Below are positions 48,009 through 50,944 of a stretch of 63,647 nt of DNA, in pieces. The stretch is from an uncultured Muribaculaceae bacterium. Lineage in GTDB: Bacteria; Cyanobacteriota; Vampirovibrionia; Gastranaerophilales; Gastranaerophilaceae. Each line of letters begins with the position of its first letter. Positions within the stretch are counted from its first letter, which is position 1. The DNA is taken from positions 1 to 63,647 of the forward strand of contig CAYLHN010000001.1 of assembly GCA_964383455.1 (NCBI GenBank), written 5' to 3'. Position numbers and translations under genes: made by a program. The notes beneath the pieces are model-generated. The model was not told the DNA's origin, ran no database searches, and saw nothing but the letters and a program-made list of their open reading frames with translations.

Positions 48009-49235
48009 TTAAGCGAATGTTTTGAAAGAATCTTCAACGTTTTTCTTACATACTGCTTTAACTGCATCTATTTCAGTTTGAACAGCGTTATGTTCAGTAT
48101 CAAGTTGTTTAAGTTTTAATTCAAGTTCTCTGTCTTGAGCTTGAACAATTGATGTCTTGGCATTGATATTATTCATTGCTTGTTCATACAGGTATGATTG
48201 ATATGTATATTCGTTCATTGCATCTTCATAACCTGCATCATCGGTAATGGTATTTGCTTTTACGGCATAATCTTCACCTTTATAATTGAAGCTTTGTACA
48301 CGATTATTTGCGTCTCTTGATATTGTTACAGGAGTGTAGCTGTCTTCTTTGTAGACATCAATATCACTTGCGGTATAATATACACAATGTCCATCACCGC
48401 CTGAAGCTTTTGCTGCTTCAATGTCTTTTTGTGTGTAATACTGATAAACAGGTTTCTCTTCTGTACCAACATTAGTTACATATACAGGATTTGTTCCGTT
48501 TTCTGATAAATAATCGTAGGCATCTTTGTGTGTACCGCTAGGATCTACATATTCGAGTGTAGCTGTTTTACCTTTATATGTTTTTATCGTTGAACCTTCA
48601 TAATTTGGCCCGCCGTCAGAATATGAAGTTACAGGTGTTGCAGTTGTAATGCCTGAAATTACAGAGGTGTCAAAATATATATTACTACCAGAAATAGAAT
48701 ATAATGTACTGCCATCACCTAATTGTGTCCATGCTGATTTTGCAGGTTCAGTAGTCGGTGCGGTTGTTATTTTATCCAAAGCTATCCAAGTCGAACCATT
48801 TGTTGAATATTTAAATGTACCGCCATCTTCTTTAACTTGATATACAGTACCGTCATCAGCTTTCATATAATGTGAATCTGCAGTTGTACCTTGAACATCA
48901 GAGCGTTGACTAGTAGAACAAGCAGGGAATCCGATTTCAGTTTTTGTGTAGTTGAATATAACTGTATATTCTCCAGGTGTTGATGTTTTTGCAAATTGCG
49001 CAACTGTTGCTTGTGTATCAAAACTGCCGGGTATAGTAAATGAGTATTCAACTTTTGTGTAATCCTGTGTATTTGGTGGTACAGGAACTTGCAATGTTAA
49101 CATTTGATTGTACAAATTGGCTGACTCATTTGACAATTCTGTTCTTTGTTGGTTAATTTGCTGACCTTGGTATTCTATATTTGTTTTTCTTGCGGTAAGA
49201 TTTAAAAATCTTGCCTGTGATGCTGCCATGCCCAT
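48009..49235 (-). CDS. Filament-subunit-like protein of unknown family, paralog 1 (conserved helical N- and C-termini, variable T/S-rich core)
   Basis: 408 aa with no signal peptide or TM helix. The termini are MGMAASQARFLNLTARKTNIE... and ...QAQDRELELKLKQLDTEHNAVQTE...KKNVEDSFKTFA. The SD is AGGAG. Confidence 0.9.
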   Translation of the reverse strand: MGMAASQARFLNLTARKTNIEYQGQQINQQRTELSNESANLYNQMLTLQVPVPPNTQDYTKVEYSFTIPGSFDTQATVAQFAKTSTPGEYTVIFNYTKTEIGFPACSTSQRSDVQGTTADSHYMKADDGTVYQVKEDGGTFKYSTNGSTWIALDKITTAPTTEPAKSAWTQLGDGSTLYSISGSNIYFDTSVISGITTATPVTSYSDGGPNYEGSTIKTYKGKTATLEYVDPSGTHKDAYDYLSENGTNPVYVTNVGTEEKPVYQYYTQKDIEAAKASGGDGHCVYYTASDIDVYKEDSYTPVTISRDANNRVQSFNYKGEDYAVKANTITDDAGYEDAMNEYTYQSYLYEQAMNNINAKTSIVQAQDRELELKLKQLDTEHNAVQTEIDAVKAVCKKNVEDSFKTFA

Positions 49236-49265
49236 AATTTTTTCTCCTATGCTATGTCATTCTTT

Positions 49266-49292
49266 ACATCGGTATATTTAATGATGAATTTA
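49266..49292 (-). promoter_or_regulatory. Sigma-28 (FliA/SigD)-type promoter, TAAA-N15-ACCGATGT
   Basis: The minus strand reads TAAA ttcatcattaaatat ACCGATGT, 30 nt upstream of the ATG. The consensus is TAAA-N15-GCCGATAA. Confidence 0.5.
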
Positions 49293-49500
49293 GAAAAATC
49301 AACATGATATCCTCCATTCGATGTAAATATTTTTTAAGAAAAGTTTAAAACCCTGTTATAGTCGGATGATTTAAAGTGTGAATTTTTAATTAAACAACGT
49401 ATTGAATACTACTTGCGCTTGGCACTAAGAATTTCACAATACAAAACAACCCCTCACCCGAATTTTTAATATTCGAGCGTGCTCTCATATTAAAATTCTA

Positions 49501-49536
49501 CCCTCTCCCGACGGGAGAGGGATTAGGGAGAGGGGA
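49501..49536. repeat. GC-rich palindrome ccctctccc-gac-gggagaggg plus attagggagagggga
   Basis: 9-bp perfect stem in an AT-rich spacer. It may terminate 49660-50886 and is part of the repeat-rich spacer. Confidence 0.6.
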
Positions 49537-49546
49537 CAACTATATC

Positions 49547-49659
49547 AGTTCACAGTTCACTACTCACAATTCACAATTAGCTAGTGCCTTTATCAATGGA
49601 TTGCTTCGCTTCGCTCGCAATGACGGTCAGTTCACCGTTCACCGCTCACTGTTCACAGT
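49547..49659 (+). repeat. Composite dispersed repeat, copy C, with two heptamer arrays (49547-49578 and 49630-49657)
   Basis: The first array reads agttcac agttcac tactcac aattcac. The agtgcctt module and caatggattgcttcgcttcgctcgcaatgacgg core follow, then gttcacc gttcacc gctcact gttcaca. Confidence 0.9.
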
Positions 49660-50886
49660 TTAAGCAAATGTTTTGAAGGAGTCTTCAACGTTCTTCTTGC
49701 ATATTGATTGAACTGCTTCTGCCTCAGTTTGAACAGCGTTATGTTCTGTATCAAGCTGTTTAAGTTTTAATTCAAGTTCTCTGTCTTGAGCCTGAATAAT
49801 TGATGTTCTGGCATTAATGTTGTTCATTTCTTGTTCATATAGGTATGATTTATATGTATACTCGTTCATTGCGTCTTCATAAGCTGACTGATCGGTAATA
49901 GTATTTGCGGTCACGGCATAATCTTCACCTTTATAATTAAAGCTTAATACACGATTATTTCCGTCTCTGGCAAGAGTAACACCTTTATAGGAATCTTCTT
50001 TGTAAACCTCAATATCGCTTGCGGTATAATATACACAATGTCCATCACCGCCTGAAGCTTTTGCTGCTTCAATGTCTTTTTGTGTGTAATACTGATAAAC
50101 AGGTTTTTCTTCTGTTCCTGTATTTGTTACCCAAATTGAATTTGTAGCGCTTCCGCCAAGAGCACTATAGGCGTCTTTATGTGCACCGTTAGGATCTACA
50201 TATTCGAGTGTTGCTGTTTTACCTTTATATGTTTTGATAGTTTGACCTGTATAATCTGCACCGGCATCGGAATATGAAACTATTGGTGTTGGTGTTGTAA
50301 TTGTTGTGATGTCTGATGTTTTAAAATATTTTTTATCACCGTTAACATAGTACAATGTCGTGCCATCTCCCAGTTTATCCCAGGCAGATTTATCAGGTTC
50401 AGTTGTTGGTTCTGTCGTAGTGGTGTCTAATGCAGTCCAAGTTGAACCATTATCTTTTGAATATTTAAATGTACCGCCATCTTTTTTAACTTGATATACA
50501 GTACCATCATCAGCATACATAACCTGAGATGTCGAAGTTACAGATTCAACGTCGGAACGTTGACTTGTAGAACAAGCAGGGAATCCGATTTCAGTTTCCG
50601 TATAGTTAAATATTACAGTATATGTTCCGTCAGAATCTTTTGAGAATTGTGCGACAGTTGCCGGTGTGTCATAACTGCCAGGAAGTGTAAAGCTATATTG
50701 AATTTTTGTATAATCTTGCGTGTTTGGAGGTACAGGAACCTGAAGTGTCAACATTTGATTATACAAATTCGCAGATTGATTTGATAGTTCTGTTCTTTGT
50801 TGGTTAATTTGTTGCCCTTGTAACTCTATATTTGTTTTTCTTGCGGTAAGATTTAAAAATCTTGCCTGTGATGCTGCCATGCCCAT
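49660..50886 (-). CDS. Filament-subunit-like protein of unknown family, paralog 2
   Basis: 408 aa, roughly 75-80% identical to paralog 1 by eye. It shares the same termini, SD and upstream region. Confidence 0.9.
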   Translation of the reverse strand: MGMAASQARFLNLTARKTNIELQGQQINQQRTELSNQSANLYNQMLTLQVPVPPNTQDYTKIQYSFTLPGSYDTPATVAQFSKDSDGTYTVIFNYTETEIGFPACSTSQRSDVESVTSTSQVMYADDGTVYQVKKDGGTFKYSKDNGSTWTALDTTTTEPTTEPDKSAWDKLGDGTTLYYVNGDKKYFKTSDITTITTPTPIVSYSDAGADYTGQTIKTYKGKTATLEYVDPNGAHKDAYSALGGSATNSIWVTNTGTEEKPVYQYYTQKDIEAAKASGGDGHCVYYTASDIEVYKEDSYKGVTLARDGNNRVLSFNYKGEDYAVTANTITDQSAYEDAMNEYTYKSYLYEQEMNNINARTSIIQAQDRELELKLKQLDTEHNAVQTEAEAVQSICKKNVEDSFKTFA

Positions 50887-50917
50887 AATTATTTCTCCTG
50901 TGCTATGTCATACGGTT

Positions 50918-50944
50918 ACATCGGCATGTTTAATGATGAATTTA
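50918..50944 (-). promoter_or_regulatory. Sigma-28 (FliA/SigD)-type promoter, TAAA-N15-GCCGATGT
   Basis: The minus strand reads TAAA ttcatcattaaacat GCCGATGT (then AA), 31 nt upstream of the ATG. Confidence 0.55.

Follow-up and report, generated by a model that had tools for sequence, protein, structure and literature searches.

FlaC, FspA, CiaI and Fed of Campylobacter are non-flagellin proteins that are produced under the late flagellar sigma factor, and some of them are exported by the flagellum. The Gastranaerophilales, widespread uncultured gut relatives of cyanobacteria, carry partial flagellar gene sets that have puzzled every genomic study. Canonical flagellins have been reported in Melainabacteria (PMC3787301). 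Complete flagellar sets were found in only 3 of 9 genomes (PMC4040986), and a full set in ~25% of Gastranaerophilales genomes (bioRxiv 10.64898/2026.04.24.720558); in both surveys the other genomes keep export genes, the role of which is unknown. The literature searched contained no cultured member of the order with imaging. Here we describe two adjacent genes in a 63,647-nucleotide (nt) stretch of Gastranaerophilaceae DNA (assembly GCA_964383455.1, contig CAYLHN010000001.1), the whole of which is referred to as the window. The two genes are tandem paralogs in a large superfamily specific to the Gastranaerophilales (Melainabacteria), and they are real and under purifying selection. As judged from structure prediction, the family resembles flagellins in overall design, not in a demonstrable fold.

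Tandem paralogs and their superfamily

The genes lie head to tail and each encodes a protein of 408 amino acids (aa):

49660..50886, minus strand: family gene, upstream copy; 408 aa; N-terminal helix 2-47, beta-rich core, C-terminal helix 333-407
48009..49235, minus strand: family gene, downstream copy; 408 aa; 80% identical to the upstream copy

Their starts are separated by 1651 bp, and the proteins are identical at 327/409 residues (80%, BLASTP), in a window of ~31% G+C. Neither paralog has a signal peptide or a transmembrane segment; the highest 19-residue Kyte-Doolittle means are 0.26 and 0.73, the textbook cut-off for a transmembrane segment being ~1.6. Only monomers were modeled with AlphaFold2 (AF2). 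The model of the window protein, which rested on a 28-sequence alignment, was predicted with a local confidence (pLDDT) of 84 and a global score (pTM) of 0.44, and a second model brings the ranges to 84-85 and 0.44-0.47. It consists of a helix (residues 2-47), a beta-rich region (60-331) and a 75-residue helix (333-407).

The differences between the paralogs are concentrated in the core. Amino-acid identity is 96% over residues 1-55, 68% over 111-250 and 84% over 332-408, and the corresponding ratios of nonsynonymous to synonymous divergence (dN/dS) are 0.05, 0.34 and 0.16. Since dS between the paralogs is 0.5-1.3, they duplicated long ago, and it is purifying selection, not recent gene conversion, that keeps their termini alike. 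Across 28 members of the family the consensus residue is carried by 89% at positions 1-55 and by 79% at 332-408, compared with 20% in the insert (111-235), which has an occupancy of 42%. Conserved termini and a hypervariable center, the combination sought in a test for flagellin-like design, are thus both present. The N-terminal helix follows the consensus MG[ML]AASQAR[FL]L.LTARK.N.E..GQQIN.QRT.L.N... and the C-terminal helix the consensus ...Q.QD..LEL.LKQLDTE..A..TE......K.N.E.SFK.FA. In the N-terminal helix, Q, N, S and T make up 45% of the residues and charged residues only 12%; a Q/N/S/T-rich, weakly charged composition resembles that of flagellar axial proteins. A perfect Asp-box (SKDNGSTW) occupies residues 143-150 of the upstream copy (window 50458-50481), within a beta domain modeled with high confidence, and the downstream copy reads STNGSTW at this place.

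A word-indexed search returned at least 4,373 homologs. A Pfam domain was found in none of them, and their source names, where given, are always 'hypothetical protein'. From an exhaustive HMMER search of 1.84 billion representatives we obtained 2,844 clusters at 50% identity with E <= 1e-3, 599 of them with E <= 1e-30. Family members are 210-753 aa long, and the longer ones typically match in two stretches, one per terminus. A scan of GTDB, with one genome per species, gave at least 547 confirmed matches, and among the 80 loci listed from it nearly all are metagenome-assembled genomes of Gastranaerophilales/Melainabacteria. The few loci labeled Muribaculaceae, Anaerovoracaceae, Heliobacteriaceae or 'Clostridium sp. 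CAG:967' are syntenic with the others and probably represent mislabeled bins. Several orthologous subfamilies are present per genome; their chromosomal contexts differ, and tandem arrangements are frequent. The subfamily of the window genes lies between thrS and gltD, and five of the related loci (numbered with an L throughout: L001, L007, L009-L011) are syntenic with it.

No described relative was found for this family. Pfam and NCBIfam gave nothing above noise, with weak coiled-coil-type Pfam matches only, and PHROGs gave no match. The PDB profile search with the family returned only a coiled-coil segment of borealin (E = 1.2), and PDB sequence-profile searches gave chance matches only for the family, its two branches described below, and the 272-aa and FliG-position proteins encoded near some copies. 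No known domain was found in the inserts of ten members exceeding 600 aa, and the literature searched holds no paper or database entry that describes the family. The preliminary description, made from the sequence alone, had claimed head-to-tail 408-aa paralogs with a period of 1651 bp, without signal peptide or transmembrane segment, of an unrecognized family, in which a conserved helical N-terminus and a conserved C-terminus enclose a beta-type core that holds most of the differences. The coordinates, BLASTP identity, hydropathy maxima, AF2 model, regional identities and database searches bear this out.

To survey branches and genomic contexts, the open reading frames (ORFs) of 87 loci were clustered, and this revealed two further forms that share the terminal helices. 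The mini branch (cluster c2, 107-109 aa) is a helix-loop-helix only, with the N-terminal motif MG..TSQ.RL..L....LDLEYK and a C-terminal motif in common with the family. It forms its own set of 397 proteins, aligns with the family at the C-terminus (hhalign probability 95.5%), and a 198-aa intermediate form exists. The long branch (545-773 aa; hhalign with the family, 97.6%) starts with MGLAA[SG]QAR[FL]L.IT.RK.[DN]CEF and is encoded in a Gastranaerophilales chromosome (L030) and on 11 IMG/VR contigs. Between the shared helices there is nothing in the mini form, a beta-rich core with a hypervariable insert in the window family, and a long mixed domain in the long form.

Promoters and linkage to flagellar genes

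Each window gene is preceded by a conserved block that contains a candidate promoter:

50918..50944, minus strand: sigma-28-type promoter candidate, upstream copy; TAAATTCA-N11-GCCGATGT, i.e. TAAA-N15-GCCGATGT
49266..49292, minus strand: sigma-28-type promoter candidate, downstream copy; TAAATTCA-N11-ACCGATGT, i.e. TAAA-N15-ACCGATGT
50887..50990, minus strand: conserved upstream block, upstream copy; ~90% identical between the copies, with boxes kept in syntenic relatives
49236..49339, minus strand: conserved upstream block, downstream copy; TTGATT at 49297-49302, AGGAG at 49244-49248

Both candidates read TAAA-N15-(G/A)CCGATGT, with the ATG 31 nt past the final base. The block of the upstream copy comprises TTTACATC, ATGTTGATTTTT (TTGATT at 50949-50954), a ATCATTAAA box, the promoter and the 5' untranslated region, with an AGGAG ribosome-binding site at 50895-50899. 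The paralogs are ~90% identical over the ~100 nt that precede the ATG and unrelated farther upstream; as coding dS is at least 0.5, this indicates that the block is under selection. The promoter site of the upstream copy recurs identically in the relative L007, with variants in L001, L004 and L008-L011. In the window, the pattern TAAA-N16-CCGAT has 4 matches against 0.84 expected, and the remaining two fall within ORFs (28791-28815 and 60218-60242), so that no other window gene is preceded by it. The two promoters count as one observation, since the copies are duplicates of each other. A test for the FliA/SigD regulon, namely TAAA-N15-GCCGATAA at a suitable distance to the start, gave the expected site with a weak -35 element in the window: TAAATTCA agrees with TAAAGTTT only in the TAAA core, and the promoters overlap other conserved boxes (TTGATT, ATCATTAAA). 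A consensus scan found no qualifying sigma-70 site in either block, and the sigma-28-type reading is therefore the best available one for the window.

Promoter classes were drawn from the upstream regions of ~90 family genes. A textbook sigma-28 site, TAAAG(T/A)TT-N11/12-(G)(C/T)CG(A/T)(T/A)A, stands before 45/94 distinct relatives, and this strict form (TAAAGTTT-N11/12-GCCGATAA) ends 35-45 nt before the ATG. In nine genes, among them the window pair and its closest relatives, the site is TAAA-N15-(C/T)CGA; a ATCATTAAA box is embedded in it and a TTGAyTTTT box lies upstream. A further ~29 have only TTGACTTT...ATCATTATAA, usually with CCGTATAAT farther upstream, and ~12 have none of these sites, many of them standing second in a tandem pair. 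When 1.5 Mb of related DNA was scanned with a regular expression, 89 strict sites emerged: 36 stand before genes that match the N-terminal pattern of the family, five before close variants of that N-terminus, and most of the others before the 90-aa gene of the module described below. The strict site was present before all long-branch genes inspected, including those of the IMG/VR contigs. A motif pair, TGT[AT]AC / GT[AT]ACA, lies 21-35 nt upstream of the strict-class TAAAG -35 element (loci L012-L086). Two or more copies of TGT[AT]AC occur in 63% of 43 strict-class promoters versus 7% of 1,373 other upstream regions, and we regard the pair, read from the sequence, as a candidate activator site or UP element. 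With respect to regulation, the ~100 bp of conservation before each ATG and the absence of a further such promoter before any window gene, both noted in the preliminary description, are reproduced by the alignment and the pattern scan. Its assignment of sigma-28 promoters gains from the comparative evidence, and is held back in the window itself, where the copies have a weak variant overlapping other boxes.

Several family genes belong to a conserved module, which is headed by a 413-423-aa family gene. Next come the gene of a Gly/Ser-rich 272-aa protein whose ends are conserved, in some loci one for a 73-aa protein, then that of a helical 90-aa protein, which has a separate sigma-28 site, and finally the mini form. 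The module was seen at L041 10001-12865 and also in L026, L058, L063, L070, L055, L060 and L071; its small proteins could be chaperones or an anti-sigma factor. In 11-13 loci it lies ~5 kb upstream of fliE-fliF-X-fliH-flhA, identified by matches to fliE (4e-17), fliF (8e-35), fliH (2e-23) and flhA (1e-130). Compact clusters that also include a TPR protein are found at L041 16486-21245 and L087 6164-13136. X, at the position of FliG (335-340 aa), has no match in Pfam, NCBIfam or the PDB, no fliI, flgB or flgC was found near the cluster, and FlhA is 87-95% identical among the 120 matches listed. Other family genes adjoin filament genes. In L074 a family gene is convergent with flgL (2e-62), flgK and flgI/H/A/G genes, where flgM-flgL has no sigma-28 site of its own. 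In L025 a family gene lies 1 kb from a canonical 576-aa flagellin (4e-57), and in both L119 and L128 a canonical flagellin is preceded, 176 nt away and on the same strand, by a 522-aa member. A physical link to flagellar genes is thus present in several lineages. As canonical flagellin, FlgL and FlgK coexist with the family, a role as a replacement for flagellin was rejected.

The canonical flagellins of the lineage have promoters of a different appearance. A tract of G10-G14 (commonest G11) lies between TTAC(G/A)G / TTTACA and TAAATA / TATAAT hexamers, in a sigma-70-like spacer ~60 nt before the ATG. It is present in 36/51 upstream regions and replaced in 13, and was seen at L025 14100-14200 (minus strand) and in L100-L179; by its sequence it looks like a slipped-strand, phase-variable promoter. 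Similar TGT[AT]AC repeats and a ATCATTAAAT box are found far upstream of canonical flagellins. The flagellin beside the family gene in L128 (3001-4620) has a central insert with repeated GxxG/N-rich, beta-helix-like motifs, which may form an enzymatic or adhesive domain.

Two other contexts of family genes were observed. In L021 (5931-8639) and 10 other loci, a family gene with a strict promoter is preceded by genes for a 240-aa zinc-ribbon/coiled-coil protein, a 499-aa protein with four transmembrane segments and a 163-aa protein; no known domain was found in any of the three. In L004 (11096-17762), a family gene is directly followed downstream by three successive genes for 700-775-aa proteins that combine a prepilin N-terminus with a Peptidase_S74 (intramolecular chaperone) domain, and MotA is encoded ~9 kb downstream of that family gene.

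Further elements and neighbors in the window

The surroundings of the two genes contain repeats and putative terminators:

49598..49656, minus strand: 3' repeat element immediately behind the stop codon of the upstream copy; GTGAACN heptamers, then TGACCGTCATTGCGAGCGAAGCGAAGCAATCC
47947..48005, minus strand: 3' repeat element after the downstream copy; same GTGAACN/TGACCGTCATTGCGAGCGAAGCGAAGCAATCC element
24-82, minus strand: third copy of the GTGAACN repeat element, over the 5' end of a pilin-like gene and in opposite orientation to it
49501..49520, minus strand: G+C-rich hairpin between the genes, CCTCTCCCG/CGGGAGAGG; read from sequence
47747..47764, minus strand: intrinsic-terminator-like hairpin with T-run, 245 nt past the second copy; from the terminator scan

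The repeat element has the structure (GTGAACN)x3-4 followed by TGACCGTCATTGCGAGCGAAGCGAAGCAATCC. It was not found in the 88 other loci searched, and could be an element of the repetitive extragenic palindrome or miniature inverted-repeat type (REP/MITE-like) or a 3' untranslated-region element. The hairpin at 49501..49520 may terminate transcription, so that each copy would be a transcription unit by itself; it was not flagged by the terminator scan because its T-run is short. No known RNA element was found near family genes at meaningful scores.

The window contains no flagellar or module genes and only two pilin-like genes, at 27-797 (sequence reading) and 37449-38186, each with an N-terminal methylation motif. 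Both resemble c4, a recurrent pilin-like cluster of the family loci. The listed TTG start of 27-797 is probably too far upstream, since it overlaps the repeat element. The recurrent 249-273-aa proteins of L087/L088, which are similar to the c4 genes, carry PF20318/DUF6613. Other window genes encode a BRO-N domain protein of phage type (933-1781), a GGDEF + HD-GYP protein of cyclic di-GMP turnover (38419-40266) and an SLH-domain envelope protein (40399-42321), and the large ORFs 19623-21485, 23554-25296 and 25787-27112 have no Pfam domain.

Possible roles and comparison with known systems

Our preferred interpretation, held tentatively and at slightly less than an even chance, is that the family comprises late substrates of a flagellar-type export apparatus that are assembled or displayed outside the cell. 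It is favored because the features of the family follow the logic of flagellar axial proteins. The shared termini would form an assembly and export module, like the terminal helices of those proteins, and FliA/SigD-type promoters would make transcription of the genes late. After export from the cell via the flagellar-type type III apparatus, the proteins would polymerize or form a coat on a filament and expose the variable core to the environment (host immunity, phages, ligands). We infer the export route, polymerization and surface exposure from several lines of evidence. These are the polar, invariant helices, the helix-only mini paralog and the unrelated middle and long cores; the confinement of diversification to the core and the several paralogs per genome; and the late-type promoter class, together with the recurrent nearness to flagellar export and filament genes.

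A number of results weigh against this interpretation. Flagellar families are not listed for the window proteins by hmmscan with Pfam and NCBIfam even at E <= 10, and hhalign of the family with flagellin/FlgL gives a probability of 0.2%; as a positive control, neighboring genes in L025 and L074 score 4e-57 (flagellin) and 2e-62 (FlgL). These values agree with the earlier remark that the termini are unlike known flagellin families. Two Foldseek searches of the PDB placed flagellins at the top with E 0.005-0.09, probability <= 0.44 and template-modeling (TM) score <= 0.2, values that are not significant, and the similarity to flagellin D0/D1 looked for at the outset was consequently not borne out. 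Cysteines occur in family proteins and, to our knowledge, are almost never found in flagellins. The sigma-28 motif precedes 0/26 distinct canonical flagellin upstream regions of the lineage; it thus marks the family and not the classical late flagellar class, and membership of a 'late flagellar class' is not demonstrated. A FliA-type sigma gene was not found in the window and 86 loci (~1.6 Mb of related DNA), where tblastn with E. coli FliA and B. subtilis SigD gave RpoD-like sigma factors only. There is no fliA within 10 kb of flhA, and the literature searched makes no mention of fliA in Melainabacteria; a sigma-28-type factor driving the family genes is what we infer from the promoters. Several of the sequences used for comparison (Hag, FliC, FliA, SigD and the needle proteins) were entered by hand. 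A weight matrix made from the strict sites scores the window promoters poorly; it neither supports nor refutes them because the training set had been selected for G at position 5 of the -35 element, to which the matrix is over-fitted. The window and most family loci also lie among housekeeping genes. For the motility-regulon filament component originally proposed, the new family, the promoters and the flagellar linkage therefore stand, while the canonical flagellins without the motif and the lack of a significant D0/D1 match speak against it.

The housekeeping surroundings and the cysteines would also fit proteins that stay inside the cell within a sigma-28-type regulon, as a coiled-coil scaffold, a cytoskeletal or motor element or a regulator, with conserved helices that would bind a conserved partner. 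The lack of a signal peptide, the long helices with weak coiled-coil-type Pfam matches only and the missing filament fold point the same way. Taken jointly we consider these roles fairly unlikely: extreme diversification and indels confined to the core, with several divergent paralogs per genome, are unusual for cytoplasmic scaffolds, and the Q/N/S/T-rich, poorly charged N-terminal helix and the linkage to flagellin, flgKL and export genes also argue against them. Secretion through the flagellar apparatus without polymerization, as soluble or surface-bound proteins whose core is an adhesin or effector domain, draws on the same regulon and linkage evidence as our preferred interpretation, to an equal degree. 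It would resemble the sigma-28-dependent FlaC, FspA, Cia and Fed of Campylobacter, and the filament itself could be made of the coexisting canonical flagellin. Secreted glycan-binding proteins commonly contain an Asp-box, and one copy has this motif. Type III signals, however, usually show little conservation, and both termini of the family are nearly invariant, while the mini paralogs consist of the two helices alone; the helices thus appear to do more than carry an export signal, and we regard this alternative as distinctly unlikely. There is a slim chance that another, lineage-specific machine exports or displays the family and that the motif belongs to a non-flagellar group-3 sigma factor. 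In cyanobacteria SigF controls pilA and pili, and the canonical flagellins of the lineage lack the sigma-28 motif. Candidate machines are pilin-like (DUF6613/N_methyl) systems, which are frequent neighbors (cluster c4 in 24 loci, L004, and window 27-797 and 37449-38186), or membrane proteins encoded beside some copies, as in the c18-c13-c14 context, where c13 has four predicted transmembrane segments and the three proteins have no known domain. The family itself has neither a prepilin motif nor a signal peptide, and adjacency to pilin-like genes means little because such genes are scattered throughout the genomes.

A phage origin, with the family as a fiber-like structural protein or prophage cargo and the chromosomal copies domesticated or prophage-borne, was considered because of the IMG/VR contigs. 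In 11 of these (L089-L099) the long-branch gene always follows genes for a portal-like protein (550 aa), a terminase-like protein (429 aa) and a 76-aa transmembrane protein, the portal and terminase calls being readings of the sequence (GGYGSGKT P-loop, gene size and gene order). The best BFVD fold matches are large uncharacterized phage proteins (E = 4e-4, TM-score only 0.18), and no BFVD match is significant. After the long-branch gene come host-like genes (secA-like in L095/L099, rsmI-like in L093, named by their N-terminal sequence) or a Mu-type transposase, so its position is probably a prophage border; in L091 two host-like genes separate it from the phage genes. Mu-like prophage genes were also observed in L025 and L052. 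The flanking host genes, the host-type sigma-28 promoter of the IMG/VR copies and the negative searches of PHROGs and of 50,697 GenBank phage records (INPHARED) weaken a phage origin, and the window genes and their relatives keep their chromosomal synteny between thrS and gltD. We therefore regard it as very improbable. An identity as a strongly diverged canonical flagellin, FlgK/FlgL or FliD would fit the overall topology and the flagellins at the top of the non-significant Foldseek matches. This is next to impossible in our view, being effectively refuted by the hmmscan and hhalign results and by the genuine flagellin, FlgL and FlgK genes that adjoin family genes in the same genomes.

Returning to export by a flagellar-type apparatus, a bolder and doubtful version is that the three branches are axial or filament components of an unseen appendage built on a flagellar type III export core. 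If true, the flagellar export machine would have been re-used independently, with a subunit superfamily and a sigma-28-type class of late promoters particular to this re-use; an export core without a complete flagellum is kept by roughly three quarters of the Gastranaerophilales. In fully flagellated members, the proteins could serve as an antigenically variable alternative to, or coat on, the canonical flagellin, for which recognition by TLR5 is predicted and which appears phase-variable. Thousands of 50%-identity clusters and several paralogs in each genome make the family one of the most diversified among Gastranaerophilales proteins, and it is unannotated. As exported surface subunits, its members would give the 'incomplete' flagellar sets a candidate function and would represent a new class of self-assembling, helix-clamped subunits and a major antigen at the host interface. 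Even the minimal reading defines a regulon, marked by the sigma-28 consensus with its upstream TGTAAC repeat, and a conserved four-to-five-gene module.

Among known systems, the closest likeness is to the flagellar axial proteins (FliC/Hag, FlgK, FlgL, FlgE; PF00669/PF00700, Flg_bb_rod). Like these, the family combines conserved terminal helices with an insertion-tolerant middle, has no signal peptide, is encoded by multi-copy tandem genes with sigma-28-type promoters, and has some copies near flagellar genes. It differs in having neither sequence or profile similarity nor a significant fold match, and each of its termini is a single long helix and not the four-helix arrangement of D0/D1. From flagellin it also differs by its cysteines and by its coexistence with a true flagellin, whose promoters in this lineage lack the motif. 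FlaC, FspA, CiaI and Fed of Campylobacter are single genes of small families, whereas the family here is an order-wide superfamily with invariant termini and mini, middle and long forms.

The mini branch invites comparison with the needles and filaments of injectisomes (SctF: PrgI/MxiH/YscF; EspA). It too is a helix-loop-helix hairpin, with a proline turn (D-P-E-S-P) and a C-terminal ..F.Y/F motif, and its gene lies beside those of two small helical proteins, reminiscent of needle co-chaperones. Homology was rejected on an hhalign probability of 0.3% against six needle proteins, a PDB profile search of the mini branch gave generic coiled coils only, and no secretin or other injectisome-specific gene was seen; the resemblance is a lead only. 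Taken together, the family is akin to subunits with terminal helices and a variable core that are expressed from a late flagellar-type promoter, and fails the profile and fold tests for flagellin and the profile test for needles. Most Gastranaerophilales also resemble organisms with reduced flagellar export sets, such as Buchnera with its basal bodies, in keeping export genes without a full flagellum, and one branch of the family lies 5 kb from fliE-fliF-X-fliH-flhA. No substrate had previously been proposed for these sets, and the family is a candidate, yet one that is also found in fully flagellated lineages.

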